From: Rhizaria sp. SCN 62-66
Taxonomy: Eukaryota
Direction of reading: 5' to 3'
Assembly: GCA_001724265.1 (NCBI GenBank)
Contig: MEDY01000054.1
Location: forward strand, 62,001 to 126,000
DNA: 64,000 bases
The notes beneath the pieces are model-generated. The model was given only the letters and a program-made list of their open reading frames with translations. It had not been told where the DNA came from and ran no database searches. Positions within the stretch are counted from its first letter, which is position 1, and each line of letters starts with the position of its first letter. The position numbers and the translations under genes were made by a program. This document shows positions 3,001 to 31,800 of the stretch, piece after piece.

Positions 3001-3932
3001 CCCGCCGGCTCTGGCTCTGGCTCTGGTGCTTTGCGCACACCGAAAGCTGTTCGCGCCTCAGGCTCTGCCTCAGGCTCTGGCTCGGGCCCGAACGCGAGCT
3101 ATGGCGTTGTGGCCAAGACGAATGCAGCTTATGAGGCGGATGTTGCCGCTGTCAACGCTCTCTCTGGCGCCGGCAACGGGCGTGATAGCTCGCTCTCAAA
3201 CGACGACGACGACGTTAACGCCGGTGTTGACGACAGCGACGATGACGGCAACGACGGCGATACGAATGCTCAGTATAGCAACAACGGCGATGACAACGCT
3301 GATGCTGATGTCGACGATGACACTGCTGCTGCTGGCGCTGAGGCTGAGGCCGAAGACGAGGAAGATCCAGAGGAATCACTCGACCTTTCAGTCGCGGCCG
3401 ATTTGGATGAGCTATACCGGGAAATCCGCAGTCTTGGCCGCGGGCTTGGCATCGGCGGCGGCGGCAACACCGCAACTGTGACTGGTAATAGCAACAACAA
3501 CAACAACAGCAGCAGCAGCAGCAGCGGTGGCGTGAGCAATGCAGGTGTGCGACGTGCCACGACCAACTCCGTCATCAGAGTGCCCGCCGCAGCCCCCGCC
3601 GCCTCCGCTGCCGCTGCTGCTGCGGGTAATAGTGCTGTGGCGCAGAGAGCTCTGTCGCCGCAGCCGTCACAGTCGCCGCCGGCACAGCCTCTTCAGCAAC
3701 AGCAGCAGCAGCAACTTGAGCTCCTGCGCAAGAACAAGCTCCAGCGACACTCCTCGTCCACAGCATCTGCCGCGGGCGCCGCTGCGTTCTCTGCCGCCCA
3801 GGCCCAGATCCAGGCCCAGCAGCGGCAGCAACAGCAGCTGCAGCAGCAACAGTCTGGCAGCAGCAGTAGAAGCTCTCCGACGCGGACTACATCGCTGCTG
3901 CCACCGGCGCCTGCGCCGCCGCAGCAGCCACA

Positions 3933-3964
<32 letters not shown>

Positions 3965-6607: not shown

Positions 6608-7281
6608 TGCGGTTCTGCGGAAGTGGGTGTGGAGAGAAAGCGAACGGTGGGGTCAGCAGGGTTATGGTGAGACATGTAGATATTCTAATTTCATACGAGT
6701 AAATCATGTGCGTGTGTAATCTTGGTTATGCATGTGGCTCGGTTGTTGACGATCAGGTGACGACGATATAGTGTCATTTAATCCACGGTAAGGCCGGTCC
6801 GCTAGTTGGCCAAGGATGAGGGTGCTTGTCAGCGGCAACCTAAAGCATACTCTATCTGGGTCAAATGATCGTCAATAGACGCATGCTTGAAATATGTTGG
6901 TTTAAATACTGGTAACGATTGGAAAATTGTATCTACGTTGCACAGATGACGGTTCAATGCATATAACCCGTTTCTGGCTCGATCCAACGGGTGGCTTCGG
7001 AAGGGGTGATCTCACATCTGCATGTTTTTACCTGCAACACAAGATATTAAGATATTATGAAGTGCCCCATTTGATATACGGTAATTCACGCCACGCAAAA
7101 CATATTTAATCTGTATTTGCCTTCGTTTTTCTTAACACAGTGTGTTATTCCCTGCCTAGGGGTTTGCTCGCGCCTCGTTCGTCTCAGATACACCGTTCTG
7201 TGTGGCTGAGCGCTGCGAGTGCCCATAGCAGGTTCCACGACTGTCACTTGTTGCATGGCGTGCCGTACACATTGCGGGAAT

Positions 7282-10200
7282 ATGGCGAAGCTGTTATTGT
7301 TGGTTGCATTTGTTGTGTGCTTCATTGCGCAGGTCGTATCTGCGTACCCCTCCACGACCGCAGGAGCCTCGATTTCTGTCTCTGATGATGCGACGTCGTC
7401 ATCACAATACGCGGAGATCCGCCTGATTCACGCCAGTTCTCTCACCACTAAGCCTATCTGGCTTGAACTTGACGGCATCCGCCTGTTTGAGCCAACTGAA
7501 CTGCTCACAGTCACTTCTTTCCACCGCCTCACATGCACGCCTCATACTAGCGCAGCATCAAGTGTTGACGTTAACCGTCTGACCAGTGCCACCGCGGACC
7601 CCGCGGTCTGTGTTGAGATCAAGGCGCTGACTGTGTCTGGTGCCACATTGCCTGCAGAGCGTGCGCTCACCGTGTTTGTTGGCGGCCGATACACTGTTGT
7701 CCTTTACGATGCCATCGATAGCACAGATAAAAGCAATAATGTCACTACCGCTACCACTGGTGCGGCTGAGGCTGCGGCCGCAAGTGTGGGCGCAGTGCGC
7801 GTGCTGGCCGAGCTGCCTGGCGAGGATGGTGGGACTGAAAACACTCTCACGCCCGCTGGAGGTACCGTCGCTGCTTCGGGGCCACATGATACCGATTTAG
7901 TGCGATATGTACCCGCTAGTCCGTCGCCGTCGCAGCTTGCTATGAACAAGGCTACGCTCACAGTCATCACTCTCCCGGCTTTCGCACGCGATGAACTCAC
8001 TGTCACCACTGCAAGTGTGAGCACACGCGTCCATTCGATGAAGGCGCACAACGTCGATGCTTCTGCTACTGCTCCTGTGGCGATGACCGCCACCGCTGCT
8101 GCTGCTGCTGCTGCTGCTGCTGCAACTGTGAATGCTGCGGTTACGAGCAATGTGGGTGTGTATGTCGGCTCAGCTGACTGCGGCGGCGACTGCGCACTGC
8201 CCCTCTGGACGCCTCAGACCCTGATCACAGAGCTTTTTCCCAACGCGATCACACCTAAAATCACCGGCGCCAACACTCTCCACAAGAGCGTTCATCAGAA
8301 CACAAACATTGTATCGGACCCTGCTTTGTTCCCTGCGCCTCTGGCTCCAGGATCTTGGGCGCGCGGCGCTGTAGCGGCGTCGCGTGTCATCGGGCTCACT
8401 CTAGCCATTGCGCCCGCCGCTGTTTCTACCCCTGAGTCCGCAAAGGCTACCACTAGCGACCATGATGCTAGAAGTGCGGCGGCGGACAATGCGGAATCAT
8501 TCTCGTTCCTCCGTCCCTTTGCGCTCAACGCTCCCCGACTGGCCTCTGATGCGACCCTAGCTCCAGTTGTGAATGCCGGCGCCGCGCACTATTGGGCGCC
8601 CCGCAGCGCCCACACCGTCTTTGTTTTCGCACCACACACTGCCTCCTCTAAATTGCACATAGTCGACGGTGTGAGCGGCGTGAGCGCTTCAGTTGCAGAT
8701 GCGGCGGAAGAGGATCAAAGCAGCACGTGGGTGGTTACTGCTGACTCTGCAGGCGACTCTACAGCGGAAGAGTTCTCTCCCCTGTTGATTCCTATGCTCA
8801 CGGTAACTCTCCTCATCTTCCTCACCTGGCTACTCGAGCCCGCCGCCGCCAACGCCGCGACCGCCGCCGCCACCACAGCGCCTGTGAAAGAGCGTCTGCT
8901 CTCGCTGGACGTGTTGCGTGGTATCACACTTGCCGTGATGGTGTTTGTCAACGCCGGCGCCGCGGGATACGAGTGGCTTGAGCACGCACCGTGGTACGGA
9001 ACGCGCTTTGCGGACTATGTGTTCCCGTTCTTTGTCATGATGATGGGCGCGGCCGCTGCGCTAGGCACGTACCGTCCCGCCCGCGCTCCGACGCAAAGCG
9101 CTGCCGCTGATGCTGCCGCCGTGACCGACCCATCACAGCCTGCGCCTGCACCCGCGGCCACAGTCACCGTTACACTCGGCACAGCGCTATCGCTCCCGCG
9201 GCCCGCGCCGTCGGCCGCAACTGCATTCTCCTGCGCTGCGCTGCTCCCGCTGCTGCGCCGAGGACTTACACTGCTGCTCATCGGTCTTTTCCTCGCGAAT
9301 CCAGCCAAGTACCGCACGTTTCGGTTTGCAGGCGTGCTGCAGCGCTTTGCGATCGCGTACGTCGCGCTCGCAGTGATGCTCAAGTGGGTTGCGCCGGGGC
9401 CCATCCCGGCGCCGCCGCCACTGCCCGCAGCGACGCATCGCGCGCGGCCGCCGCGCGGGGACTGCGGTTGCGGATGTGAGTGCGACTGTGAGCACGATTT
9501 GTCCGCATTCTTCCCTCATGCGGCCCCATCTACTTCTGCTTCTACTTCTGCGTCTGTGTCGGGAGTCGTTGGTGGCACGACGGTGAGCGCAACAGTGCCT
9601 GCCGCTGCCACTGTTGCTGCCACTGCGCCTGCTGCTGCTGCTGCCGCTGCTGCTGCAGTGTGGGCGAGCATTGACGATGCACCGTTATGTCTCCCGCTGC
9701 CGATGCCTATGCTTGATCTGCTGGGAGGTAAGCCGCTTTCACTCTCACGTGGCCCTCCGCCACCAGATGCACTGCGCAATAACGAGGACGGTGGCGATGA
9801 GGAGTCAGGAGCTGTGAACGCTACCAAGGCTGCAAGGTTGCCTGCCGCCTCTGGTACTGGGTCACTCAACGACCCTCTGCTTCAATCACCGGCGGACTCA
9901 TCGTTCGCTGCCAAGGGTAGCGGCATCAGCGGTGCCGTCACGGTCACATTGCTTGACAGCGCTGGTGCAAAGCCCATTCGCGTGCTCACAGTCACCCGCT
10001 CAGACTGTCCGCACTGCAGCGCTCTCTCCGCTGGCACATCCTCATCCTCTTGCTGCACCGCTCTCACACGTGCAGCGCGGCTCTGCGCGCGTGCAGTCGC
10101 CCGCTCTTGCGCAGCGCTCCTGGCCGAGCTCTGGGCCTTCCGCTGGCAAGTCTTCGTCGCGCTAATCGTGCTCCCGTGCCTCTGGCTCGCACTGGCTTAC

Positions 10201-11046
10201 GTTGCCGCGCCCGCGCCCTGCCCGCGCGGCTACCTCGGCCCCGGCGGGCTGTGGGCCCATCGCGGCCGCTTCTACCCGCCGCTGCTCGCGAACCCCGCCA
10301 CGCCCGCCGCCGCCGCCGCCTCGGCGCCGCTGGTGGCGATGGACGCGGTGAGCCCCGCCGCACTGTGCACTGGCGGCGCTGTGAAGGCGATTGACGTTGC
10401 CGTTTTCACTGAGCAACACATCTTCCAGCACCCGACGTCCGAGGTTGTTTACGGCAGCCCGTCATTTGAGCCGGAGGGCGTGATGGGCTCGCTCACCACT
10501 GTCTCGAGCGCCTACATCGGCGTTATGCTCGGCCGCGTCGCCGTGTTCGCGCGCTCACACCGGGCCCGCATCGTGCGCTGGGCTGTCTACACCGTCGCGC
10601 TGCTGCTGCTCACCGCGCTTCTGCTTGTCGGTGGACGTGACGGCGCGCCCAGCGGCGCTGCGACGCGCGCCGGCGACGCAGAGCTCCTGCTCTGGGGCTG
10701 GCTCGACACGGCCGCCGGTGTGCTGGGCGGAGTCAGCAAGAACACCTGGTCCCCCGCGTTTGTCACGCTTGCTGGCGCGGTGTGCGCGGCGGCGCTGGCA
10801 TTGTGCTACGTCGTCGTCGACGCGGCGCGCGCGCTGTCGGGAAAGCCGTTCGTGTTTCTGGGAATGAACTCGATCGTGGTGTTTGTCGCGCACGGACTGC
10901 TGGCGTCGCGGTTTCCCTTTGCGTGGACGCTGTATGACTCACCGACGTCGAGGGTGGAGGTGGCGGCGCAGAATACACTTGCGGTGACGGCGATGGTTGC
11001 GCTCACGTGGGTGCTGTACAGGAAGAAGGTCTTTATCTCGGTGTGA
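7282..11046 (+). CDS. HGSNAT: Heparan-alpha-glucosaminide N-acetyltransferase-like membrane protein, single exon
   Basis: Signal peptide MAKLLLLVAFVVCFIAQVVSA from ATG 7282 (alternative ATG 7255). Motifs RLLSLDVLRG, MVFVN, HAPWYGTRFADYVFPFF (catalytic His retained), GVLQR, CPRGYLGPGG, FEPEG, SKNTWS, GMNSIVVFVAH, and C-terminal LYRKKVF. Ends TGA at the expected position. Confidence 0.92.
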   Translation: MAKLLLLVAFVVCFIAQVVSAYPSTTAGASISVSDDATSSSQYAEIRLIHASSLTTKPIWLELDGIRLFEPTELLTVTSFHRLTCTPHTSAASSVDVNRLTSATADPAVCVEIKALTVSGATLPAERALTVFVGGRYTVVLYDAIDSTDKSNNVTTATTGAAEAAAASVGAVRVLAELPGEDGGTENTLTPAGGTVAASGPHDTDLVRYVPASPSPSQLAMNKATLTVITLPAFARDELTVTTASVSTRVHSMKAHNVDASATAPVAMTATAAAAAAAAAATVNAAVTSNVGVYVGSADCGGDCALPLWTPQTLITELFPNAITPKITGANTLHKSVHQNTNIVSDPALFPAPLAPGSWARGAVAASRVIGLTLAIAPAAVSTPESAKATTSDHDARSAAADNAESFSFLRPFALNAPRLASDATLAPVVNAGAAHYWAPRSAHTVFVFAPHTASSKLHIVDGVSGVSASVADAAEEDQSSTWVVTADSAGDSTAEEFSPLLIPMLTVTLLIFLTWLLEPAAANAATAAATTAPVKERLLSLDVLRGITLAVMVFVNAGAAGYEWLEHAPWYGTRFADYVFPFFVMMMGAAAALGTYRPARAPTQSAAADAAAVTDPSQPAPAPAATVTVTLGTALSLPRPAPSAATAFSCAALLPLLRRGLTLLLIGLFLANPAKYRTFRFAGVLQRFAIAYVALAVMLKWVAPGPIPAPPPLPAATHRARPPRGDCGCGCECDCEHDLSAFFPHAAPSTSASTSASVSGVVGGTTVSATVPAAATVAATAPAAAAAAAAAVWASIDDAPLCLPLPMPMLDLLGGKPLSLSRGPPPPDALRNNEDGGDEESGAVNATKAARLPAASGTGSLNDPLLQSPADSSFAAKGSGISGAVTVTLLDSAGAKPIRVLTVTRSDCPHCSALSAGTSSSSCCTALTRAARLCARAVARSCAALLAELWAFRWQVFVALIVLPCLWLALAYVAAPAPCPRGYLGPGGLWAHRGRFYPPLLANPATPAAAAASAPLVAMDAVSPAALCTGGAVKAIDVAVFTEQHIFQHPTSEVVYGSPSFEPEGVMGSLTTVSSAYIGVMLGRVAVFARSHRARIVRWAVYTVALLLLTALLLVGGRDGAPSGAATRAGDAELLLWGWLDTAAGVLGGVSKNTWSPAFVTLAGAVCAAALALCYVVVDAARALSGKPFVFLGMNSIVVFVAHGLLASRFPFAWTLYDSPTSRVEVAAQNTLAVTAMVALTWVLYRKKVFISV

Positions 11047-11482
11047 GCAGATGTGAATATGATGTGAGCGGCAATGCAAGTATGTGTGAAGATGACCGAA
11101 GTCGAGTGTGCGTGGCCGTGGATGCGACTGTAGCTCTAATGAAGGTGGCCATACCTAAGAAGAAACATGCAACTGCTCCAATCGTTGTGACTACTGTTGC
11201 TCTTGCTGCGTGGGGGGTCAAAGAGAGAAACGGGGCTAAGTTGCAGGCTACTTAAGGTACTCTCGGCAGAATATGAGTCATTCATCAGCGTGGTCAAATT
11301 GCGAGAGCGTTCGTAGAATAATAAATATATTGTTTTATTACTGTCGAAATCGCATATTAACATGACATTTGAATGAAATCAGACATAAATTAGTGTCAAT
11401 TTGGCCCTGCACACACAAAGCAAGCACCGCAACATGTTCAGCTCAATAAAATAAGTTTCCTCAAATCACTCTGGCGTTTCGC

Positions 11483-14400
11483 TCACTTGAAGCGGCGCGA
11501 GATCTCCTCCTCCTCAGCGCTCTCCGGTCCGTACACATAGTCACCGGTCACCTCCTTGAACATCGTGTTGACGTCGACCACGGCGCCGAGGCGGCGCAGC
11601 GTGAGGAACGCGCCGGACAGCTTGCGGTGCAGAGTGTAGGCTTCCATGGGCGGCGCCGCGAGGCGCGACTGCACCATCTTGCCAGCCAGCGGGCCGACGC
11701 GGCCGGCGATGTTGCCCTTAACGAAATCGTACGGGCCGGCGGTGCCAAAGGGCTCGCCGACAATGACGGCGGTGGCGACGTGGAGATCCATCATCTCGGT
11801 CGTCTCGTCGCCGGTCAAAAAGCCCATCTTGAGCGAGGCGTCGATGATGCCCGCGCGGTCCCCGGCGCCGCACGCGCGCACCATGCGGAGATACTCGTCC
11901 ACAAACGCCTTCTTGTAGCGGCGTGAGGCGCCGAAGTCGATGAGGTTGACGCGCTTGGTGGCGGGGTCGTAGAGGAAGTTGCTCCAGTTGGGGTCGGTCT
12001 GCATGAAGCGCCACGTGAAGAGTTCGCGTAGCGTCACGCGCATTAGCAGCGCGCCGAGCGCGTTGCGGTCGTCCTGGCTAAGGTTGAGGTGGCCGGCCGA
12101 GCCCGCTGCGGCGGCATCCGTGCGCGCCTGCGCAGCGGGGTCGCGGAACCCGGAGCCGGAGAGGCCGGACTCGGCGGCCACGGCGGGCGGGAGGGCGCCG
12201 TCCGCGCCCGGGAGCGCGATTTTGTCGATGGGGACGCCGCGGACGAGCTCGGTCGTGAGGACGCGCTGCGATGACGCTGAGGGGAAGACGGCGGGGACGT
12301 AGACCTTGCCGCGCAGCGCGGGCTCGGCGTCGATGATGTCCTTGAAGTGGGACTGCGCAGCGGCTTCGTAGGCGTAGTCGCACTCGAGAGTGAGCTCCAT
12401 CTTGCCAGAGGACATCGCCTGGTCAAGATATAAGCCGCGCGGGGTGAGATTGACCATGGTGAGCAGCTTGGTCAGGTTGTCGATGTCGCTGTTGATAGAG
12501 CGCGCGACGCCAGGGTACTGGACCTTGACTGCGACGAGCTCGCCGGAGTGCAGCGCGGCGCGGTGCACCTAGATAAGAGTTCAGAATATCAACAGCAAGA
12601 ATATAAAGAGATATACATGTGAGTTTTTTGAATCGAGAATGATCATTCAGAATATTACGTATTAAAATAAAATGAAATTTACGAAGACCATGTCAGAGCT
12701 GCGCTATATTGTTGCGAAAGTTTGCGATCCGTACCTGGCCGATCGACGCGGCCGCGATGGGCGCGTCCTCAAACTCCGCGAAACGGGCGGTACGCCAGTC
12801 AGCGCCCAGCTCACCGGCCATCGCGGCCTCGAGCTGAGCGCGCGGCATGACGTCGGCTCCCTGACGCACGCGCGCCATCACGGCGGCGAGCTCGGGCGAC
12901 AGCAGAGACTCATCCTGTATGAATGATTGCAGCAACGCAGCAAAGACGATGAGGAACATAAGGGAGTAGAAATCGCGAAAATTAGCTTAGTTTAGAGATC
13001 AAGCAGTACATCTAGAAACAAATTAGATTACATCGCTAAGATGTTTCCCAGGCAAAGTTCAGCTCGGACATATCTATTATGCAAATCCGAATAATATGAA
13101 TCCCACGTACCTGGATCGAGAGCATCTGGCCGATCTTGAGCGCGGCGCCACGCATGCGACACAGCCCCTCGACGAGCCGCTCCATGTTCCGGGGCGTCAG
13201 CAGCGCACTGCCCGCAGAACTACCGTTGTTGTCACTGCTGGAGAAGACGCTGGACGCCTTGTCGGCGACGGTGCCGGCAGCGAGGCGCGCGGCGAGGGAG
13301 CCGAAGCCCATGAAGCGGGCCAGCGGGGATGCCGGAACCGCGCGTTCCGTGCCCTTGAAGTGCGGGTTCGCGCGCGCCACGGCCGCCAGACGCGGGCGGC
13401 CCTCCGCGGGGGCGGCGGTCTCGACGGGAGAGGTAGCAGCGGCCGCAGCGGCAGCGGGCGCGGCAGCGGCAGAGGCGGTGGAGGCAGTGGGAGCGGTAGT
13501 GGTAGCGGGAGCAGCAGTGGTGGCAACGGGGGAGGCGCGGGCCTGGGCCTGGTTGTGCTGGGCCTGAGCGCGCGCCTTGATCTGGTCAACGATCGAACCC
13601 TCCTTAGCGGCGGCGGCGGCAACAACAGGCGCAGCAGCAACAGCAGCGGCGACGGGAGCAGCGACGGGAGCAGCAGCAGCGGCTTGCTGTGAGAGGAGCT
13701 GGGCCTCCATAGTAGCCAGGCGGGCGCGCAGAGCAGCGATCTCAGCCGCAGCGTCGTTCTGCTGCACAGGAGCAGCGCCCGGAGTCGCAGCGGGAGTGAA
13801 CACAGGCTCAGCGTCGGCTACAGCAGCAGCGTCAGCAGCGGCGGCGTTGGCAGCAGCAGCCGCGGCGGCGGCGGCGGTGTCAGAGTCGCGTTGGCGAGAG
13901 AACCCGCTTGCCGCACCCGTAGTCAACGACATGGCCGCGTCCGCAGCGGAGGCCGCAGCGGCCCCGAGCGCGGCAGCGGCGCTGGTCGCAGCCGTGGCCG
14001 CCGCCGCCGCCGCGTCGGCCGGGGACGGCACAGAAGCAGCGGCGCGCGCGGCCGTGTCCGCCGCGGCGGCGAGGGGGGCTTGCACGAACTGCGTAGCCAT
14101 CGCGAGTGACGCCTCGGCGGCCTCACGCAGCGCCGCGGGGGTCGTAGCGGCCAGCGGCGCGGCCACAGTCTCCAGCAGTGCGGAGACGGCGGCCGGGGAC
14201 GAGGCGGAGGCCAGCGCGGCGCCGAGATGCTGGCCCAGGCGGCCCGCGGTCGCCGCGGCGGTGTCGGGAGCATACACCGATTGCGCGGACGAGGACGACG
14301 CGGAGCTGCCACCAGCGGCGGCCGCGGCGGCGCCGGACGCGGTGTCGGCGTTGGTGGAGGACGTGCCGCCTTCGACGCCGAGCGCGAGGAGCTTGGCGTT

Positions 14401-14688
14401 AACGGCCACGAAGTCGCCGAGGCGGGCCGAGCAGGCGGCGGCCTCGTGCGCGGTGAGCTGGGAGAGCACGTCAAGCGCGCCCAGCGCCACGCGCGTGGCG
14501 TCCTCGAGGTACTGAGTCGGCGAGGGGGGCGCCGCGGCGGCAGCGAACGCGCGGCGGGGCGCGGGGGATGCGCAGGGCGGCAGGGCGGTCGCGGCGGTGG
14601 AGGTGGCGGCTGAGAGAGCGACGGCGGAGGCAGTGCTGGCGGTGCGCACGAGGGTGCGGCGCGCACACCAGCGAGAGGCGTGCAACAT
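11483..14688 (-). CDS. COQ8: COQ8/ADCK3 (ABC1/UbiB family atypical kinase); exons 14688..13111, 12914..12735, 12568..11483
   Basis: Spliced product contains LCRMRGAALKIGQMLSIQD (KxGQ), FEDAPIAAASIGQVHRA (A-rich loop), VAVKVQYPGV, MQTDPNWSNF, LIDFGA, LHRKLSG. N-terminus resembles a mitochondrial presequence. Ends TGA. Confidence 0.95.
12569..12734 (-). other. Spliceosomal intron 2 of COQ8 (166 nt, phase 0)
   Basis: GTACGG...ATCTAG on the minus strand; joins SIGQ to VHRA. Confidence 0.93.
12915..13110 (-). other. Spliceosomal intron 1 of COQ8 (196 nt, phase 0)
   Basis: GTACGT...ATACAG on the minus strand; joins MLSIQ to DESLL. Confidence 0.93.
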
Positions 14689-15097
14689 TATCCTGCGGCG
14701 CAAAGAGAGACTGCAGGCACGAGCAGGCGTGGATAGAAAACTGAGCGCGAGCTAGACACGGGCGCAGAAGAGATTCGGGAGGGTGAGGATGAGTGGGTAG
14801 GTCAAAGACCGAGTGGTGTGTGCGGAGGAGTTCGTGAGGCGCGGTAAAGTAATTAAAATAGTTCCTCAATGCAAAATTAATAAATTCATCTGGACAAAAT
14901 GATGCTGCGTGGATCGCGCGATCATACAGTGTGAAAGACATGCTTTTTGTTGTGCATCCACACGTGATTTCTGTGCGCTTCACTGCGCGGACCGAAAAAA
15001 GTCGTGGTGAAGTCAGGAGCGGTTACCCAATCATGAATTTTGTTTGGTCATTTGCACGTGAAATCCATCGTCAACATTGACACGGACACTGTGACAA

Positions 15098-16597: not shown

Positions 16598-18343
16598 TTA
16601 CGATGCAGCCTCGCGGCTGCTGGCAGATAGCTCACGCTCAGCTTCCGGTGGCACGAGCATCTGTTGTTCAGTGCCGACTCCACTGCGCTTGCTGTTGCTA
16701 GAGGCCGTGCTCTCGCCACCGCTCGAGTGGTACGGCACTGACGCCTATCCGGCTGACGCCGCAGTCGCGCGTTCAAGCTCGCCCTCCTTCGCCGCCGCAA
16801 CGGAGGCCGTTGTCGCAGCTGTTGCCGTTGCGGTAGTGGTGACAACAAGGGCGGCGATCGCGTCCTAAGCCGCTGCCGCAGAGGCGGAGGACTGTTCGTA
16901 GGCGTCACAGCGCGTGACAAAGTCCCAGAACTCGCCGAAGTTAAGCCGGCCGCCACTGCAGACACACCGCGTCACGTTTGCGCATGTGCAGACTTTACCG
17001 AGAGCTGCGAAGACAGCGGCAGTCTCGGACTCGGTCATAGAAACGCCGAGTTTGTCGCACACTCTACGCAGCTGCTGCTGGGTCAGCTTCTCAGTCACGT
17101 TGGGCTCACACGCAGCGAACGTGTCGTCTGCCTCAAATGTCACCATCTCAGCACTGGGCTGAGTGGGCACAGACGCGTCGTAACCGTGGTTATGAACACT
17201 GTCATCAGAGCATGCGTGCGTGTTCTGCTCCGGATGGAGGTGCGCAAAGTGACCGTGAGCAGACATCGCGGCGGTGGTGCTCTGATGTGCGTGCGCCAGA
17301 GCAGCGGAAGCCGCGCTCTGCGCAGTCTCGAGCGGGCTGGCGTCGCTGCTCGTGGCGTTCCAGCAGTAGTTCACGGACAAGCTACGGTACTTGTACTCAG
17401 CAGTGTGCGGAGGGTACGTCGCAAAAGCACCGGCATAGGCCGCTGTCGTGTTCTTGCTGTCGTGCTGAGTATGCAGCTGCAGATAAGCAGGGGCCGGAGC
17501 TGATGCAAGTGCAGGCGCAGATGCAAACGCCGGACTGCGTTCGTGCTGCGTACAGCTGAAGCTGCCGCGACTGCTGCTCGCGCCATACTGCGACTGCGCG
17601 TAGTGCAGCGCAGTTCCAATGTGGATTGCGTCAGCGTCGAGCTCAACTTCGTCCTCATCGTCGTTGTCGGCGTTGTCCGTGACATCGCTGTACGAGACGT
17701 TGTAGCGCGCCGGCAGCCCCGTTGCGGCAACAGCGACAGCGAAACTGCCTCCATTGCTAGCGCCTCCATTGATAGCGCCAGCGTTGTCGCGGTGCTGAGA
17801 CTGCGGCGCTCCCAGTGGCGGAAGCAGCACGCCGTGTACAGCGCCGCAGCCGTTGCTGCCCTGAGCAAAGTCTCCGGCAGCGCCATAGCTGAGGCTGCGG
17901 CTCACGACACTGCTCTTCAGGATTTCGCCATTATGGGTATTGACACCGTTGCCAAACAGAGTAGAGCTAGAGAAGAACGGGTGCGCTACAGGCTAGCCCG
18001 CACCCACATCTACACCGGAGTCGATGTTGTGCGCGTGAATCGCGTTAACATCAGCAGCAGTGGCGGGGAGCGAGTAAGTGTTGTATGCGGGGACTGTGTG
18101 GTGGTGAGGCTGGTAGTCAGTCTTCGCTGTCACACCGGCAATCGCGGGCAGGTGAGCCGGAGCGCCTGAGCCCTGGACTGAGGCGGGGAAGCGCTGCCGG
18201 GGCTGCGCAGCTGACATCTGCAAGTGCGACTGTGAGTATGGCTGGGGCTGGGGCTGGGGCAAGCGGAACGAGGTGGGTGTCAGCTGGGAGGCGCCAGGGG
18301 CTGAGGAGTGCAGGGAGACAACATTTCCGAAAGCGCCATTCAT
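16598..18343 (-). CDS. Hypothetical protein (~581 aa) with a degenerate EF-hand-like region; three in-frame TAG codons
   Basis: One frame runs from ATG 18343 to TAA 16598-16600, interrupted only by TAG at 17993-17995, 16865-16867 and 16745-16747. Includes KLTQQQLRRVCDKLGVSMTESETAAVFAAL...GRLNFGEFWDF (calmodulin-like helix-loop-helix). GC-rich coding-like composition lasts to about the TAA. Full length depends on TAG being read as sense. Confidence 0.6.
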
Positions 18344-21929: not shown

Positions 21930-22308
21930 GTTCCTATGAGGAAACAAAAAGGGAATTCCGTGCTGTGATTTGATTATTTAGTTTTGCTTTTTAAACGCGA
22001 GGTATTTTAAGAATCATGATGATGACAGCTATCTAGTGAAATTAATCATGTTATCACGACCCGAAATAAAGCGCATCATGCTTTGTATGTCTTCGATAAC
22101 AAACGCATTGTTTTAATAATCGTTGTCGTCTTCTCAAACGGTGGTATTTAGCCATAGATGTCCTGATGCACCCAAGACAAGATTCGCTAGATAAGAAGAA
22201 AATGTATTGTCCTAGTACTACATAACTTATGAGTATAATGCATCATCATATCAGACATTATTCACATAGATAGCTTACACAAGCATAATTTCGTGTTTGG
22301 AACCTTAA

Positions 22309-25300
22309 TTACAGCCGGAGCTTCCCGCTATGAAGATCATCGTAGAGTTCTTGTGTCAGCACAACATACCGCTTCGCGGCATCATCACGCACCCACACTG
22401 TATCGCCAACTGCCATTGCCACATCACCACTACCAGCGCTCTTGCTACCGTTAAACAGCTCAAAGCCAGCACGTTGCAGAGCCGTCTTGTTGTGCTTAAA
22501 CGTCGCAGTGACCGTGAGCAGCGACGCCGCCGTCCCGGTGCCGGTGCCAGCGCCATGAGCCGCGCTCGCAGTCGCGGGCGCGGCCCCAGTCACTGCAGCC
22601 ATGGCAGCAGAGTTGTTGTGAGCTGCTGCAGCAGGAGCGGGCGTGCGGAGGAAAACCGGCATTTGCCACGACGCCAGCTGCTTCGACAGCCTGTTGTACA
22701 GCAGCGCGGTGTCAATGCCAGCTCCGACGCCGCTCGCCTGCTGTGATGACGGCTGAATCGCGCCCGCGCTCGCGCCCGCGTGGGCGGCCGTGGCGTTGCT
22801 TGCGTGTGGGATCAAGAAGGCCATTCCAGCGCGGCCGTCGCAGCCTGGCACAGTGACGCCGTACACAACCGCGTCCTCGACAAGTCCCGTCGCCATGACC
22901 ACTTCCTCAACCTGCGAGCACGCACAGTTCTCTCCTTTCCACCGGAACGTGTCTCCGAGCCTGTCGACGAACGTGATGAACCCATCGGCGTCCTTGACCA
23001 TGAGATCCCCGGAGCGGAACCACTCATCGCCGTGCGCAAACACGTCCGTGAGCACCTTGCGGCGCGTCTCCTCCTCGGTGCTGTAGCCCGACCACTGTCG
23101 CAGCGGGTCCGAGCGCACGATCTTGCCCACCAGCTCGCCGGGCTCGCCGGGCAGGCACTCGACGCAGAGCCCGTCGGCGTCGCGCACGGGCTCCATCGCG
23201 CTGTCCACAGAGCTCGCGTCGCGTACCCCGCTCTCCAACGCGTCGCTGCTAACACTGTTGGTACTCGTGCTCGCAGGTGTGGGCGAGCCCGGCGCGCCGT
23301 GCAGGCGGACGATGTGGACGGGGTAAACGAGGGTCGTGACCCATGGGAGGTAGCCACACGCGCCGACTTTGTTCATGGTGTTGACCAGAGTCGCGTTGCC
23401 CTCAGTCGAGCCGTAGAACTCGCCCACGTAGCCCACACCGAAGCGCGCCTAAATAGAAGATGTAAAACAAAATGATGAAACATCACGCATTTGAGGCGAA
23501 GTACAATATCAATCAAGGATTATGAAAAATTGCGTATAGGTAAAGTGATGGACAAATTCGTCGGAGATATAAGCGATACGATCGATCGATAAGTAACATG
23601 TGGTGAATACGCGAACAAAGTTCACTTGCGTACCTGAAAGCGCGCCCAAACCTCTGCACGCATGCCGTTGCCGATGGCCTTCTTGACCCTGTGCGCACGG
23701 TCACTCTGCGCGGGCGGCGCTGCGAGCAAATAGCGTGCCAGCTGCCCGATATACTGCACCACAGTGACTCCGTAGCGCGCACAGTCGGGGAAAAACGCCG
23801 ACGCGGAGAACTTGCGTCGCAGCACGAGCCCGGCGCCGAGCCACCAGGACATGCCGACGCCGAGTAGGCCACCCGATGAGTGGTAGAGCGGCAGCGGGCA
23901 GTACACGCGGTCGCCGGGCGACAGCCGGTGCATCGTGGAGAAGGACACGCCCGCCATGAAGAAGCGCGCGTGGCTGACCGTGGCCGCCTTGGGCAGACCG
24001 GTTGTGCCGGAGGTGTAAATCAGGAACAGGGTCGAGTGCGGGCCGGTCGCAGGCGTCAACGGCGCCACTGCAGCGCCGGCGCCGGTGGAAGTTAAGCCGC
24101 CGCCGGCGCTCAGTGAGATACTGTGGGGCGAGGCGGGGGCGCGCGGGTACATGCACCGCAGAGGCACGCGTGCGCTCGCAACTTCACTCTCGGCACGCTC
24201 TGCACTCGCGAACATACAGCTAGCGCTCGCGCCAGCGCCCACAGCAACGGCGGCAGCTTCAGTCCTAGACGTGAGTGCTGCAATCGCGCCTGCCGCGGCG
24301 AAGTCGCTCGCGTCATCCTCGTCGTGGTCGCGTTCAGTCAACCGCGCAAACCCACCGCGTGCAGTGTGAGATGAAGACGCTGCAGCTGCGACGCCGCAGT
24401 GCTCACAGTTGCAGTCGCTCTCGGCACATGCGCGCTCACAGTCGCCCGCACCCTCGCCCCCGCCCCCGCCCCCGCTGCGGCTCGTGGGTGTGTAGCCAGG
24501 CAGCGGCTGCAGGTGCCAGAGCGCCTCGACGGGACACGCGCCGCACAGACGGCCGCTGCGGAGCGCGCCGGCGTTGGCTAGCACGGTCACGGCCGCCGCC
24601 AGAGGGGCCGTGGCGCGGCTGCCGGCGAGCACGGACAGCGCAAGGCCGCGCGCGACGCTGTAAAGGGCGCCTGTCACAAAGGCGCAAGGGCCGCCACGGG
24701 CGCGGGTGTGAGTGCGGGCGCAGGCGTGGGACGCTGCTACAGAGCCCCACGCGGTCGTGTGTGGTGCCGTGACGCCTCTCGCAGCGGGGGAGAGCGGGCT
24801 AAGACTGAAGCTGTCGACGCGGCCGCGGCTGGAGGCGAGCGCAGGGCTGCTTGTGCTGTTGCTGCTGCTGCTGCTGATGCGGGTGCGGCTGGAGTCGCGG
24901 CTGCCGCTGTCGGGGCCGTGGTGTGCGAGGTGGTTCCGCGACTGCGGCTACGGCTGAGACTGCGATCGCAAGTCGACTGACGCAGCACCAGCAGCAGACG
25001 CAGAGGCAGCAGCAATAGGGGCACAGTGACGCCGATGCGGCTGCTGTTGCGATGCAGTCGCGCTGGCGCAGCCAACGCACCGCCCCAGCACCATGGTGGC
25101 GTCGTGTAACACAAAGCCGACCTCGACGAGAGCGTCCGCCCAGTGGCTGTTAACCATGGCAGCAGTCAAACTGTCCTCGATCCTGCCCATCACCCCAGCA
25201 CACGCACTCGCGCTCGCGCTCGAACTGGCGCTCGCGCTCGAACTGGCGCTCGAACTGGGGCTCGCGTTGGAGCTGTTGCTATGGTTGGATCTGTTGCTAT

Positions 25301-26150
25301 CGTTGTTGGCGGCATTGCAGTGCGTCGCAGCAGCGGCCGCGCGCGCCGTATGAACGCAGATATCAAGCCCGTCGACGGGGCAGCGAACAAGCCACTGCGG
25401 TGCGGACAAAGCTCCAGTGCCAGATGATGACGCAGCAGCAGCAGCAGCAGCAGCAGTGCCATTGTTATGCGTAGCAGACGCAGCAGCGACAGCGGCTGCG
25501 CGCGCGGCGGCGACGGCAACTGCGGCGGGTGACTCGCCCCACAACGCAACGTGCGCAGCCGTTACACTGGTGTCCGCAGTTGCGGTGGACGCAGCGGTTT
25601 CATCAGGGCACTCCCAGAGCTCCGTTTCCGTAGCGAGCGCTGGCGCGATTTCGGCCGCCAGCGCAGCACACTCGGCGCCGTACACAAGCACGGCCGCGCC
25701 GGACTCGCGGATGGCGTGTAGTAGCGGTGCGCCGCGCATAGTAGCGTTGAGTAGCGCGATTCGGCAGCCAGCGCGCGCGAGGCCGAGCCAGAGTGCCACA
25801 AATGCGGGGCGAGAGTCCATCAGCAGCGCGACGCACGCGCCCGGCTGCAGCGACACGCGCGGGGACGTCGCCCAGACGCGCACGGCGGCGCTGGCGCCGT
25901 CGAGCGTGGCGAACGAGAGCAGGTGCGCGCCGGAGAGCAGCGCGGGCGCGTGCGGGCGCAGGCGGAGCTGGCGGGCGAAGACGTCGGGCGCCAGACCGCC
26001 CGCGCGCACGAAAAGCAGGGTGCGGACTTTGACGTAGAGGAAGCGCGCGATGTAAGCGCAGAGGGCGAGCTGGCGGGAGAGGTAGGCGCGGGAGCGAGCC
26101 GGGAGCAGCGCGGAGAGCAGGAAACCCACCACGATCAGGAAGATGATCAT
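22309..26150 (-). CDS. Fatty acid transport protein / very-long-chain acyl-CoA synthetase (FATP/SLC27-like); exons 26150..23634 and 23448..22309; one in-frame TAG at 24948-24950
   Basis: N-terminal hydrophobic anchor; VALLMDSRPAFVALWLGLARAG...ALLN; IYTSGTTGLPKAA (AMP-binding); YCPLPLYHSSG; RRKFSAS; QYIGQLARYL; EFYGSTEGN; WFRSGDL; FVDRLGDTFRWKGEN; GRAGMA; TATFKHNK; terminal GKLRL then TAA. The ORF-track pieces 24948..26165 and 23622..24677 share one frame and are separated only by a TAG. Confidence 0.92.
23449..23633 (-). other. Spliceosomal intron of FATP gene (185 nt, phase 0)
   Basis: GTACGC...ATTTAG on the minus strand, AT-rich; joins VWARFQ to ARFGVGYVGEFYG. Confidence 0.93.
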
Positions 26151-26838
26151 TGTTATCTGTGGCAAGGAAACAAGGTTGAGACTGCAGTTGACGCGTGCGA
26201 CGCGGTATTAGTGAGCCGCAGATGCGCGGTATAACCAAGAGGCTTCCGATAAGCTATCCGTGTGTCTACCTTCCTGGTGTTGCTTTAGTCCACTTCTGTG
26301 CCGCAGTCTTGGCGCAATTTAGCAAAGCATTGAAGGGGTTCAACATGGAGGGGTGAGCCTACTTCGACAAGGTCGTTTGTTGTGAAGAGATCGTCAGTGG
26401 ATGTACTATTGAAACGGCAAATATGAAAAATTGTTTTCAATAATAATCCTTAATAATACTTTGGAGTCGAAGTGTTATATCAAGATGTGCGTTCCTGACG
26501 CTCCCACGACGCCCGTTCGTCCGCGCACAGTCCAGTCACCGGCGAAGGTGATTGTAGTGTAACCATGCATTGGTAACTGGTGTGACTGTAGCGAATTATC
26601 GTCCTTGACCACATTACTCTAGTTGAACAGCATACATCCCCAAACCTTGTCTTTTGACCGTTGTCTTGTTTGTTATGACTGAATGAGAGTGTTATTCATG
26701 AAATATTATATTGGTGTATGGTGGTGACGCTGTTGCAGCGAAAAAGACGAAAGATACAAAACAAACTATTATAACCCGGGCAAATCCATCACAAACCAGG
26801 CAGTATACTGTGCTACGTGGAGATCTCACGGCAGTCCT

Positions 26839-28151
26839 TTACAAATCAAGCGCAGGCTTCTTGGTGCGCGCCTTAGTGACGGGGTCGGCGGTGAACTCCT
26901 GGGTCATGGCCAGAATTTCGTTGATCTAAAAGGGAAAAGAGACACAGTGAGAGTGAAAACAATAGCGCGAAACAAGTGAGCAATCAGAATATAATGGAGA
27001 AACTAAGAACATTGTCACAAATCGGCATGACATGTGTTCAAACTATCATCATCGCACAAGCATATGATTGAACGTGGTCAATAAGAACGTACAGTGTGCT
27101 GAAGGTCGCGCAGATCGTTGTTGAACATGATGCGCAGCGCCGCGCTCGCCGCGTCCACCTCGGCGTCCCCCGTCTTAACGGCGGCGTCGGCCAGCGCGGC
27201 AAGCTCCTTGCGCGCGCCTTCCACGGTCACCACGGCGGCGACAGCGGCCTCGGCGCGGCGGCGGCGGCGCTGCGCGGTGGCTTCTGCGTGCGCGCCCAGG
27301 TCGCGGGGCTTGATCGCGGTGCCGGACTCGTAGACCGAGGACAGACTGCGGATCTGGCTCGGCGTGAAGACGCCCTGCTCGGCCGCCACGGCTGCGTTGG
27401 TCTGCGCGGCGGCCGCGGCGGAGGCGGCCGAAGAAGACACGGAGGGCGAGGCCACAGTCACTGCGGCTGCGGCCGCGACGTGGAGGTAATCGCTCTGCAC
27501 GCGGCGGCGCGCCTCGCGCAGCAGCGACAGCAGCGCGTCGTCGGAGGCGTCGGTCGCGGGGGCGGGCAAGCGCAGCACGGCGCACAGAGGGGCCATCGCG
27601 GCCGCAAGCGCGGGGCGGTCCGCGAACGCTGTCATCGGGTCCCCACCAGCGTTGCCAGCGATGCAAGCACCGACAGAGCTGCTCTCTGCGTCAGCAGAGG
27701 CAGTCGCGGGCGTGGCAGGGACCGCTGCGGAGGCGTGCGCGGCCGGGGGCGCGGGCAGCGGGAACTGGGCAGGGAAGTGCGCCTCGGCGGCGGCAGGCGC
27801 GAAGTACTGGGCGGAGGAGGAGTAGAACGAGGCGCGGTCGGCGTACTCGAGGCCCACGGCGCGCGCGGCGAGCCAGTCAGCGAGCGGGGCGCGGTCAGGT
27901 GCGGAGAACGGGTCGCGGGTGAGAATGTCCTTGGGCGCGTCGAGAGTGCCGAGGTACTCACGCCAGAGAGCGAGCCAGTCGTCGCTGAACTCGAGGGAGC
28001 GGAACGGAGCGCGGTCTTCCTGGTCCAGCTCGCGGATCTTCTCCTCCTCGAGCCACAGCACCAGAGTCGCGAAGGACGTCCAGTCGGAGAGATCAAGTGT
28101 TGATGCCGACGGATACTCAAGCGCGAAAAGCTTACGCTTGATCGAAGCCAT
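26839..28151 (-). CDS. RTRAF: RTRAF / C14orf166 (CLE, tRNA ligase complex subunit) homologue; exons 28151..27093 and 26925..26839
   Basis: N-terminus IKRKLFALEYP...FATLVLWLEEEKIRELDQEDRAPFR and spliced C-terminus ALRIMFNNDLRDLQHT-INEILAMTQEFTADP match the family pattern. Ends TAA. Confidence 0.85.
26926..27092 (-). other. Spliceosomal intron of RTRAF gene (167 nt, phase 0)
   Basis: GTACGT...CTTTTAG on the minus strand; restores LRDLQHT-INE. Confidence 0.9.
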
Positions 28152-28890: not shown

Positions 28891-31800
28891 TCACATGTTG
28901 TTGTTGATGTAATTGTTTGGTAAAGCGAAGACATCACGTTTCTTCTTCGCCTTGGACTCTGACGCCATAGACTCGGACTCCGTCGCCGCGGCAGTCGCCA
29001 CGGGCAGAGACGAGAAGGTCTTGGGCCCCGCCGCACCCGCCGCCACCGTGGGCGCAGCAGGCGCCGGCGACGGGGTGGGTGCTGGCGTCGACGCGGGCGA
29101 CGCCGCGGGCGCGAGGATCTGGGTGAGACCGGCTAGAGACGCAGTCCCCACCTTGTCAGCGCCGGAGACGAGGGGCGAGCTTGCGCCCGCGCTCGCGCTC
29201 TGCCTGCGCTGGCTCGCCTCCGCCTCAGCCGCCCGCTGCTGGTTCGCCAGGATCGCCCCTGTCCGCGCGCGCAGCCCGTCGTATAGTGCCTTGAGCGCTG
29301 CGGCCACGCCTACAGGCCCGGCGCGACGCGCGGGGTCGAAATTCAGCAGGAAGTCGAGCGTCTCGATGAGCCGCTTGCTGTGGCCCGCAAACTCGCACGC
29401 CTGCGGAGGCAGGTAGTCGCGTTCGTTGACGCGCTTACCGCTCGCCAGGCTCTGTGCGACAATCATCACGGTGAAGAAGTTGGACAGGTCGTAGAGCGGG
29501 CGGCCCAGCCACAGCTCGGCCGCGGCGAGCGTGAGCGACCAGGAGTCGCTTGACTGCGTGATGAGGTTCAGACGGCGCCGGTCGTATCTGTTCTGGTGCG
29601 GGTCCGTGGTCTGCGACAGCAGCAGCTGCTCGGGCGACTGGTAGATCTCCGTGCCGCGCGCCACGCGCGTTGCCACCAGCAGCGGCAGCGACTGCTGCGT
29701 TGCGATGCCCGCGCCCGCGCCCGCGCCCGCCGCCGCCGCCGCGTCGGTCGCGCCGGAGAGCCGCGGGTGGTGCCATGTGGCCACCAGCGCGGCGGCACGC
29801 AGACTGGCCGGCGGCAGGATCACCGCGGTGCCGAAGTCGCCCAGTGCAACGCGCGGCGGCCCCTGCTCGCGCGGGCAGGCGGCGCTGGCGGCGGCCGCCT
29901 CCGCCAACGCGATGGCCTCCGTGGCCGCGACGGCGACGTCGCCGGCGCCGTGCACGTTGGCGCGCACGGGGACGCGGACAGGGACGACCCAGTCAGACTG
30001 CAGCAGCGTGCGCGCCTTGCTCTGAATCAGGATGTTGTGCAGCTTGATGTCGAAGTGCGCGACGCCCAACGCGTGCATGCGCGCGCTCGCGTACGCCGCG
30101 CGCGCCGCGAGGGCCAGGACAGCCTTGCGGTGCTCCAAGCAAAGCACGGTGCCGCGGAAAAGGTCTTGCGCAACCGCCGCTGGAGAAGGCCGCTCATCGT
30201 TGCAAACAGTGCATCGGAGGGCGCCGTCGAAATCATCTTCGATCAACGCGGTGCTCATCGCGGTGGCCTGCTTCGTGGTCATCGCCGGCCCTGCCGACGA
30301 CAGCGGGCTGGCGGCCGAGAAGACCCCCGCCGCGCTGCTCACCACCGAGGCTGTCGGCGACGCGCCGGGCAGGGATGTGGTGACGGCGGTGACGGTGGCG
30401 GCGGCGGCGGCGGCCACGCGGCGGTCTTCGCTGCGCTGAGAGGAGACCTTCAGGCTCTTGCGCCACGAGTTGGCGTCTGAGTCGAAAAGCTCCATGATGA
30501 TGGCAACGGCGCCGAAGACGTTCACGTCGTCGGGCTCGGCCGTGTCGCGCCCGCTCGCCACGGAGCCATCGTCGCGGCTGCGGCCGTAGAGGTCGCGGCT
30601 GTGCGCCGTCTCGGCCTGCGCGTCGCGCCCGTACCCCGTGCCCGCATCGGAGCTGGTGCGGAGCGACTGCGCGGGCGCAGAGGCGTCGTCAGCAAACTCG
30701 CTGGAAGTGGCGCGTGGCGCTAGAGCCTTGATGGAGCGCACGAAGCCGAAGTCGATGATCTGACCAACACCTTCGCCCGCGCGCGCGAGGCGCTGCATCG
30801 CGGTGATTTCGTTGAAGATGTTGGGCAGCGTGTTGTACTCCCACGTGCCCTTGGGCACTTCGAGCAGCTTCACGGCGACCCTGCGCGTCGTGTAGGGCCG
30901 CAGCGGGCAGCGGCGGTGGCACGGCACGACGCACGACGCCGAGACCTCGCGCGCGGTGAGGTCCTTGGCGGCGCGGGGACAGAAGTGCGCGTGCTTGGCG
31001 TAGTTCGCCCACCGCGGCATCGCGGGCGTGTACGTGGCCGAGATTACCTTGCCGAACTGACCGCGGCCGAGCATGCGGTCGATGCGGACCGAGCCGTGCA
31101 CCATGTCGACCTCGGCCCACGCGCCGGCGGCGGCAGAGAGCTATGCGGGCGGTGGCGGCAGCAGCAGCGGGAGAAGCGCCGGGTTTGGGGTCAGCGTCGG
31201 CGCCGCAGCAAACGAGAAACCGAAGCCAGACGCGCCTGCGAACCCCGAGGCCGGAACACTGGAACTGAGGCCCCACTGCGCGCCCCCGCCGCGGACGGGC
31301 ACAGACGGGTTGAACGCGCCAGCGGGCCGCGAGTCCGTGCCATCAAATGAGACCGGGATCGCGCCGGCGATGTCGACCAGCGGCTGCGGCGACTGGAACG
31401 TAAGCGCGGCGTGCGCCGCAGTGACAGCGCCGTAGAGCGGGCTGTGCGACGGCGACTGGAACAGACTGGGCAGCTCCGGCCCCGTGCCCGGCGTGCGCGA
31501 GGGCGAGATGAGCGGGGTCGAACCCTGCGGCCCCGTGCCCGGCGTGCGCGAGGGCGAGATGAGCGGGGTCGAACCCTGCAGCGGCAGCGGCACGGGCCCG
31601 TCCAACTCCTGGTGGTCGAGCAGACGCGACACGCGCGCCGCGCCTGCGCCTGCAGGCAGCGGGGCGCGCACCATCGCCGCGCCGGCCGCCGCGTTCGCCG
31701 ACACGAATCTCAGAGTTTGCGTCGGGGTTGGGATCATCGCCGCGGTGCTGCCCAGCGCAGTGTTCTGGCCGAACATCAGCGGGGATGGCGGCGGCGGCGG

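Follow-up and report, generated by a model that had tools for sequence, protein, structure and literature searches.

In-frame TAG codons in three genes of a GC-rich eukaryotic contig suggest that UAG is read as an amino acid

The window, the whole 64-kb stretch of DNA analysed here, derives from low-depth metagenome assemblies. Its host, a GC-rich eukaryote whose genes carry introns, is uncultured and comes from bioreactor/wastewater metagenomes. The minus strand of the window encodes a fatty acid transport protein (FATP)/acyl-CoA synthetase in which codon 401 of 1218 is TAG. The gene is made up of the following parts.

22309-23448, minus strand: FATP exon 2, 379 codons (coding part 23448-22312), containing FRSGDL and DRLGDTFRWKGEN; terminal TAA at 22311-22309
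23449-23633, minus strand: FATP intron, 185 nt, GT..AG (GTACGC...TTTAG), AT-rich, phase 0
23634-26150, minus strand: FATP exon 1, 839 codons including the TAG, ATG at 26150-26148; YTSGTTGLPK lies downstream of the TAG
24096-25667, minus strand: Ala/Ser-rich lineage-specific insert of 524 codons, open in frame except for the TAG
24948-24950, minus strand: in-frame TAG at codon 401, as read from the sequence

A sequence-only reading of this stretch had proposed that an otherwise intact FATP gene is interrupted by this TAG. Reading the minus strand bears this out: the codon links two stop-to-stop ORFs of 419 and 441 codons in one frame, which stays open, as had been claimed, up to the intron at 23633-23449. 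The encoded protein starts with a hydrophobic stretch (MIIFLIVVGFLLSALL), a candidate membrane anchor, matches the Pfam AMP-binding family (PF00501) at 1.1e-33, and contains both YTSGTTGLPK, which we take to be the ATP/AMP motif, and DRLGDTFRWKGEN, presumably the FATP signature motif. All catalytic motifs lie 3' of the TAG (YTSGTTGLPK in exon 1, FRSGDL and DRLGDTFRWKGEN in exon 2), so that termination at codon 401 would strip the protein of them. The earlier argument that a stop at this position would ruin an enzyme that otherwise looks intact therefore holds. Over this catalytic half, identity to the metagenomic ortholog P0005 amounts to 56-58%.

The TAG itself falls within an insert that P0005 does not have; 524 codons in the window stand against about 81 residues in P0005/L001. 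The coding frame of this insert contains a single stop compared with 7-16 in each of the five other frames, and 5000 shuffles held 10.5 stops on average, none of them with one or fewer. The frame of the insert is kept open beyond chance. The protein resembles the FATP/SLC27 very-long-chain acyl-CoA synthetases (about 30-33% identity to animal FATP1/4) in its AMP-binding domain and in YTSGTTGLPK, FRSGDL and DRLGDTFRWKGEN. It differs from them by the 524-codon insert, which separates the first conserved block from the P-loop-like motif, by a second insert in exon 2, and by a total of 1218 codons versus about 650-880 in relatives. The metagenome scan with FATP yielded a single, distant relative, L001 (56% identity, 50% GC), with no intron and no internal TAG, in which two of seven long ORFs appear to end in TAG; L001 and the window have no gene order in common beyond FATP, and L001 is uninformative about the TAG sites. 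In a tree made by a quick method from 31 rows chosen from 120 listed matches, only the pairing of the window FATP with L001 was resolved, and atlas searches returned broad eukaryote families only.

On the minus strand, the surroundings of the TAG (24950-24948) read TCG CAG TCT CAG CCG TAG CCG CAG TCG. The period-6 pattern that had been described here, with CAG at every second codon, is present as read, but it comprises only four units and was not called by Tandem Repeats Finder at a score of 30 or above. A relaxed four-unit pattern, which was picked after viewing the site, is unique in the window and was matched by 0 of 100 shuffles. Since the introns of the window (GT-AG, 168-196 nt) are AT-rich and the TAG lies in a GC-rich open frame, a cryptic intron removing this codon is unlikely. 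The 32-mer adjoining the TAG gave no exact match in genome_contigs or in viral_contigs, and a protein fragment of 160 aa centred on the TAG had no match with an E-value of 0.001 or lower in the lengths that were searched. No contig among those listed from four runs spans 24948-24950; the base call comes from the assembly of the window.

Two other loci on the same strand hold four further TAGs in frame.

16598-18343, minus strand: gene 6, unannotated, ATG at 18343-18341 and TAA at 16600-16598; its bounds are the edges of a GC-rich block
16745-16747, minus strand: TAG 3 of gene 6, in frame
16865-16867, minus strand: TAG 2 of gene 6, crossed by a colinear polyA-RNA contig (run X6, 16728-17033)
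17993-17995, minus strand: TAG 1 of gene 6, CAG in runs X4 and X8
28891-31140, minus strand: kinase ORF, 749 codons in the frame of the giant ORF, with a protein-kinase domain; TGA at 28893-28891
31141-31143, minus strand: second in-frame TAG, joining the giant to the kinase ORF
31144-63999, minus strand: giant ORF, 10,952 codons, leaving the window; GC3 about 0.82

The GRGQFGKV motif of the kinase domain lies 20 codons 3' of the TAG at 31141, and GC3 is unchanged at about 0.88 on both sides of this codon. No Pfam domain was found in the giant ORF, and genome_contigs, scanned with the kinase protein, yielded no relative. A 121-aa protein fragment centred on this TAG likewise had no match with an E-value of 0.001 or lower in the lengths covered by the search.

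Across the whole window, about 18,930 coding-frame codons contain five in-frame TAGs, distributed over three of about ten genes, and no in-frame TAA or TGA. Nine genes end in TAA (five) or TGA (four) and none in TAG; the end of the RLL gene is uncertain. If TAG is assumed to make up 25-30% of stops, this outcome has a probability of about 0.05-0.08, which from so small a sample is weak evidence. At 13036 and 12569, genes seemed to end in TAG, but both codons proved to be intronic, and the TAGs that closely precede the start codons of the COQ8-like gene and of RLL belong to introns or 5' leaders. The five in-frame TAGs are followed by open frames of 39-749 codons with a GC content of 0.52-0.75 and codon scores of +0.19 to +0.41 bits per codon in frame, negative in the other frames. 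In contrast, the nine true terminators directly adjoin AT-rich UTR (GC 0.30-0.47), with negative scores and the next stop within 2-20 codons. The two groups are completely separated by their downstream sequence (Mann-Whitney p = 0.0016). The TAGs are in frame, have coding-like sequence on both sides and lie outside recognisable introns. They suggest that UAG serves as a sense codon in this organism. With a probability that we put at roughly 55%, it stands for an amino acid, probably glutamine, and only UAA and UGA terminate translation.

The same TAGs could be artefacts of base errors, GC-rich introns, editing or mis-modelled genes; in particular, the TAG at 31141 may separate two genes, the second starting at a Met 12 codons downstream. 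The low depth of the underlying assemblies speaks for such errors. Two gene callers (P0123 and P0144) do start the kinase at that Met, which leaves a plausible kinase N-terminus, and the shared frame of the two ORFs would arise by chance in one of three cases. However, contigs from run X3, which belongs to a different study, cover 16745, 16865, 17993 and 31141, that is four of the five TAGs, with no differences over 0.8-2.1 kb, and contigs from polyA-RNA (X6) are colinear with the window, without gaps, over 16865 and 31141. What these RNA contigs show is colinearity: their strain differs from the window by 2-7% (at 7 of 306 and 31 of 453 positions) and may not carry TAG. X6 looks like real RNA, since its depth falls to zero in three bins between genes at which X4, a DNA run, reaches 5.7-7.7. 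Many further contig "joints" were treated as spurious, their sides being 20-28 letters long and placed within GC-rich repeats. The AT-rich introns of the window are unlike the TAG sites, which argues against GC-rich introns. The two-gene model would have to accept a GC-rich spacer of 36 nt, whereas intergenic regions elsewhere in the window are AT-rich and several hundred bases long, and it would leave the TAGs in FATP and gene 6 unexplained. We therefore regard artefacts and mis-modelled genes as very unlikely.

A second alternative is that the TAGs are true nonsense alleles, and that FATP, the giant/kinase gene and gene 6 have been broken by recent point mutations, mostly from CAG to TAG. 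TAG is the stop codon most easily reached by mutation: in a random-nonsense model it accounts for 63-66% of new stops, and five TAGs out of five would occur with a probability of 0.10-0.12. A very low density of in-frame TAG (5 in 18.9k codons) and a FATP TAG known from the assembly of the window alone would also be in keeping with broken alleles, as would the CAG that takes the place of the TAG at 17993-17995 in a sister strain (runs X4 and X8). Gene 6 looks weakly constrained: nine of the ten strain differences listed for it are nonsynonymous and seven of the ten fall on codon position 1. For this reason we downgraded the TAG/CAG difference, which is not clean evidence of synonymy. Strain differences were taken from those listed, and a TAG site with no listed difference is not evidence of identity. 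A plus-strand frame that would make the differences in gene 6 mostly silent was rejected, as it contains nine stops, has a negative codon score and gives a junk-like translation. On the other hand, nonsense alleles would require that three of about ten adjacent genes were knocked out in a population that recurs with no differences across two studies. None of these genes shows a frameshift or an in-frame TAA or TGA, the coding signal is undiminished 3' of every TAG, and the frame of gene 6, despite its three TAGs, extends exactly to the TAA that marks where the GC-rich block ends. Masked heterozygous alleles are disfavoured by the X3 contigs (0.8-2.1 kb), which are free of differences. In sum, we consider true nonsense alleles unlikely, although a recent C-to-T change, named as a rival by the sequence-only reading, could account for the FATP TAG.

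Alternatively, the organism may use the standard code and produce some full-length protein by leaky or site-specific readthrough of UAG by a near-cognate tRNA-Gln. A stop codon followed by C is a weak termination context, and three of the five TAGs are followed by C. The scarcity of in-frame TAG would suit tolerated leaky sites. Near-cognate readthrough by tRNA-Gln is reported for standard-code organisms (PMC13192750). Against this explanation, the five sites have no common context: positions +4 to +9 read CCGCAG, CTCTCT, CCTGTA, GACGCG and GCGTCA, with no common hexamer, and RNA structure downstream of the five TAGs is not beyond that of shuffles (z from -1.54 to +0.84). It is also hard to justify why the entire catalytic half of an enzyme should be supplied at a low level, and TAG terminates none of nine genes. 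Readthrough under the standard code thus appears quite unlikely.

We therefore return to UAG as a sense codon. If this assignment is correct, the FATP mRNA would be translated past codon 401 to give a full-length enzyme of 1218 residues, the giant ORF and the C-terminal kinase would form one protein, and gene 6 would be translated from its ATG to its TAA through all three TAGs. Ribosomes would insert an amino acid at UAG, presumably glutamine. The decoder may be a tRNA with the anticodon CUA or a strong near-cognate tRNA-Gln, presumably accompanied by an eRF1 with poor recognition of UAG. Scans for tRNA genes and Rfam families found none in the 64-kb window. None of the five TAGs occupies a conserved Gln column, as all of them lie in unconserved, low-complexity sequence. 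With no TAG at a conserved residue, both translation through UAG and the identity of the amino acid are putative. The proposal of the sequence-only reading that UAG encodes glutamine has fared accordingly: its first half, UAG as sense, is strengthened by four additional in-frame TAGs, by the lack of TAA and TGA in frame and by nine gene ends without TAG, but for glutamine there are only hints, namely the short (S/P)-Q repeat, a single strain difference of TAG versus CAG in a weakly constrained gene, and precedent.

In-frame TAG is about 25 times rarer than expected for a neutral synonym of CAG (5 versus about 125, with TTG:CTG as a yardstick). Such rarity as a sense codon fits a young reassignment or inefficient decoding. 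We tentatively propose a nascent reassignment in a GC-rich non-ciliate, in which UAG was lost as a terminator and is re-emerging as a glutamine codon by transitions from CAG to TAG. Co-occurring strains would still differ (TAG/CAG) at one site or more, and UAG would so far have reached about 4% of the frequency expected at equilibrium. This more specific scenario is possible, though on balance doubtful.

The closest precedent is the nuclear code of Iotanema spirale, where UAG encodes Gln and UAA and UGA are stops; 126 of its genes together contain 204 UAGs in frame, and many of these stand at conserved Gln columns (Panek et al. 2017, PMC5304391). As in that code, only UAG occurs in frame in the window, only UAA and UGA are seen as terminators, and the hints point to glutamine. 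Unlike those genes, the window contains five TAGs in three of about ten genes, none at a conserved column, and the host is GC-rich. The same paper describes the rhizarian "exLh" code, in which UAG encodes Leu and UAA and UGA are stops (PMC5304391). This code is also a UAG-only reassignment in a non-ciliate, but the window gives no hint of Leu, and the one strain difference is TAG/CAG. UAG-only reassignments are also described for phyllopharyngean ciliates (PMC11687900), where the meaning of UAG likewise shifts independently of UAA. With its long GC-rich genes, GT-AG introns and AT-rich spacers, however, we judged the window not to be ciliate-like. Finally, ambiguous stop/sense codes are described for Condylostoma, karyorelicts and Blastocrithidia (PMC4967479, 10.1101/2022.04.12.488043, PMC12153298), in which a stop codon also stands as sense inside genes. 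UAG may have such a dual use in this organism too. The ambiguous codes described there use two or three stops as sense at high density, whereas here only UAG is used, very sparsely, and none of nine genes ends with it. Among the papers listed by full-text literature searches, none described rare sense UAG in a GC-rich non-ciliate.

To our knowledge, nuclear reassignments of UAG alone are restricted to a few lineages, and in nearly all variant codes described so far the change is old and the reassigned codon has already become common. If UAG is indeed a sense codon in this organism, its code would represent an early stage of reassignment, in which UAG never serves as a terminator, occurs about 25 times less often than a neutral glutamine synonym would, and varies between strains. 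Such a stage would allow a direct comparison of the "codon capture" and the "ambiguous intermediate" routes. Public protein sets (P0123 and P0144) already contain these genes split at the TAGs by prokaryote-style gene calling, and unless the correct code is chosen, proteomes of the host would suffer systematic truncation.

The fatty-acid transport protein/acyl-CoA synthetase (FATP) gene carries a TAG at 24950..24948 on the minus strand, within TCG CAG TCT CAG CCG TAG CCG CAG TCG. This TAG, codon 401 of 1218, links stop-to-stop ORFs of 419 and 441 codons that share one frame. The joined translation across it matches Pfam AMP-binding (1.1e-33), and the next ORF downstream encodes the C-terminal part of the enzyme. 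The gene consists of the following parts.

26150-26148, minus: start codon ATG
from the ATG down to 23634, minus: exon 1
23633-23449, minus: intron of 185 nt, GTACGC...TTTAG, phase 0
23448-22312, minus: exon 2
22311-22309, minus: terminator TAA

Three motifs, YTSGTTGLPK, FRSGDL and DRLGDTFRWKGEN, are encoded downstream of the TAG. The sequence-only reading had described this codon context, an intron from 23633 and motifs beyond the TAG, and the sequence bears out all of this.

The closest relative of the FATP protein, P0005 from the metagenomic locus L001, is 56-58% identical in conserved blocks; in the FATP tree only this pairing is resolved. In P0005, ~81 residues separate the first conserved block from TSGTTGLPK; the corresponding stretch of the window gene is 524 codons long (25667-24096). 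The TAG therefore lies in a lineage-specific Ala/Ser-rich insert. The coding frame of this insert contains one stop, the TAG itself, versus 7-16 in each of the other five frames; shuffling the insert 5000 times gave a mean of 10.5 stops and no shuffle with one or fewer. Using a codon-usage model trained on confident genes, we scored the coding frame at +0.20 upstream and +0.14 downstream of the TAG, the top of six frames in each segment. The insert is unlikely to be an intron, given its open frame, its positive codon score and its unlikeness to the definable introns of the window, which are AT-rich, 168-196 nt long and have GTACG-type 5' sites (two in the COQ8-like ABC1 kinase gene, one in FATP). 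The L001 FATP gene (8354-11323), from a 50% GC genome, lacks both intron and insert, so that GC enrichment, the intron and large low-complexity inserts were either gained on the branch of the window organism or lost on the other.

By searching for lone stops that separate long ORFs, interpreted with codon-position GC, we found a TAG at 31143..31141 (minus) that bridges, within one frame, a giant ORF of 10,952 codons, which leaves the window, and an ORF of 749 codons. GC3 is ~0.88 either side of the TAG, which is followed after 20 codons by the glycine loop of a protein kinase (GRGQFGKV). Two public gene calls (P0123 and P0144) begin the kinase at the first Met past the TAG, which indicates that the callers split the gene there.

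The single frame spans at least 11,702 codons (28891-63999, minus, leaving the window), with the C-terminal kinase as its only recognisable domain. The giant ORF contains no Pfam domain and is composed of 19% Ala, 12% Ser and 10% Pro, with a strong coding signal (GC3 ~0.82). Summed contig depth of the polyA-RNA run X6 reaches ~3000 in two bins at 29800-30999, compared with 1-7 elsewhere, probably because a short GC-rich stretch there is matched, at 90% likeness, by some other organism's abundant RNA.

The remaining in-frame TAGs lie in an unannotated gene (gene 6).

17993, 16865 and 16745, minus: in-frame TAGs of gene 6

Bounded by ATG 18343-18341 and TAA 16600-16598 (minus), gene 6 fills its GC-rich block exactly. 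Of the six frames only its own scores positive on codon usage (+0.24), and this frame contains no stops besides the three TAGs; the other frames contain 9-27. A competing plus-strand frame was rejected as an Arg/Cys/Val-rich junk translation without a family match. In runs X4 and X8, G replaces A at 17995, which turns this TAG into CAG on the coding strand. Of the 10 listed differences from this strain, 9 are nonsynonymous and 7 are on codon position 1; the TAG/CAG difference at 17993 belongs to a larger set of changes in a protein under weak constraint. The difference pattern (16601-18343) is odd in a gene that codes for protein; fast evolution, diversifying selection or chance may lie behind it.

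Across ~18,930 codons of coding frames we counted five TAG and no TAA or TGA. Other suspicious TAGs were dismissed as intronic (13036 and 12569) or as part of 5' leaders (14752 and 28152). The nine gene ends comprise five TAA, four TGA and no TAG, the end of the RLL-family gene being uncertain. Judged by the sequence that follows, the terminators and the in-frame TAGs form groups without overlap (Mann-Whitney p = 0.0016).

After the 9 terminators: GC of next 60 nt 0.30-0.47; in-frame codon score negative; next in-frame stop 2-20 codons
After the 5 in-frame TAGs: GC of next 60 nt 0.52-0.75; codon score +0.19 to +0.41 bits per codon; next in-frame stop 39-749 codons

Whatever the TAGs do, all five are embedded in sequence that is coding-like on both sides.

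The metagenome behind the window was taken from a bioreactor or wastewater. In run X3, which belongs to another study, contigs show no differences over 16745, 16865, 17993 and 31141, so these four TAGs are not errors of one assembly; because the contigs are unbroken over 0.8-2.1 kb, hidden heterozygosity is also argued against. The FATP TAG lies outside the listed pieces of every run, and its base rests on the window's own assembly. Contigs of X6 are colinear without gaps over 16865 and 31141, which speaks to colinearity and not to base identity at the TAG (7/306 and 31/453 positions differ). X6 behaves as RNA, since its depth is zero in three intergenic bins that a DNA run of its study, X4, covers at 5.7-7.7. 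It is improbable that the TAGs are artefacts, lie in a hidden intron or are edited, or that 31141 separates two genes, since independent contigs, colinear RNA and the properties of the introns speak against this; two genes would, moreover, leave the FATP and gene 6 TAGs unexplained.

Our best reading, with a probability of roughly 0.55, is that this organism translates UAG as an amino acid, probably Gln. The sequence-only reading had proposed UAG = Gln from the FATP codon, an interpretation that is partly supported and now wider. Four more in-frame TAGs and the lack of TAG gene ends strengthen the case for a sense codon, but Gln is only hinted at: no conserved column holds any of the five TAGs, and which residue they encode is not readable from them. 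Also counted against a sense UAG are the weak constraint on gene 6, the nonsense spectrum, TAG rarity and the L001 gene ends. Random nonsense changes at this codon composition would yield 63-66% TAG, which makes five TAGs out of five only a P of 0.10-0.12; were TAG a neutral CAG synonym at the TTG:CTG ratio (0.23), ~125 would be expected instead of five. At L001, two of seven long ORFs appear to end in TAG, so any code change is not common to both organisms at that distance. True nonsense alleles, the rival already named for FATP as a recent C-to-T mutation, nevertheless seem unlikely: three of ~10 neighbouring genes would be broken in a recurring population by TAGs only and no frameshifts, and the coding signal is undiminished downstream. 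Slightly less likely still is a standard code with leaky readthrough of UAG, as the sites share no context, lack downstream structure (z from -1.54 to +0.84) and contrast with nine examined gene ends devoid of TAG terminators.

Composition is two-state throughout the window, with exons at 60-80% GC and introns, UTRs and spacers at 30-50% (for example 22000-22300, 26250-27050 and 23449-23633), a contrast sharp enough to read gene boundaries from GC alone. The other genes are as follows.

11483-14751, minus: COQ8/ADCK-like ABC1 atypical kinase (PF03109, 1.1e-44), with a long N-terminal extension without any domain
13110-12915 and 12736-12569, minus: its AT-rich introns, with GTACGT and GTACGG 5' sites
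27081-28151, minus: RLL/RTRAF family gene (PF10036, 5.8e-28); a GTACGT splice site, instead of its TGA, may close its ORF
5732-6652, minus: small gene with a Coa1 domain (PF08695, 1.1e-05)
106-345, plus: translation resembling a protein-kinase domain end (…RLLVKKMLTLAPEGRPTI), followed by an AT-rich stretch
346-5349: 1668-codon ORF; gene 1 may be a kinase with its first exon before the window

The organism is identified as a eukaryote by its GT-AG introns and by families restricted to eukaryotes, among them RLL and Coa1. Its pattern resembles that of Iotanema spirale: UAG occurs within genes, the terminators seen are confined to UAA and UGA, and there are hints of Gln. In I. spirale, UAG = Gln was established from 126 genes that together hold 204 in-frame UAGs, from the lack of UAG terminators and by analysis of conserved columns; a rhizarian UAG = Leu code is described there as another UAG-only change (PMC5304391). 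Phyllopharyngean ciliates are likewise reported to show UAG-only changes (PMC11687900). The window shares with I. spirale the absence of UAG terminators (among the nine gene ends examined) and of in-frame UAA or UGA, and its five TAGs do not fall on conserved Gln columns. If UAG is sense, this organism would be a further case in the known UAG-only class; what sets it apart is a GC-rich genome and a use of the codon that is very low and may be nascent.
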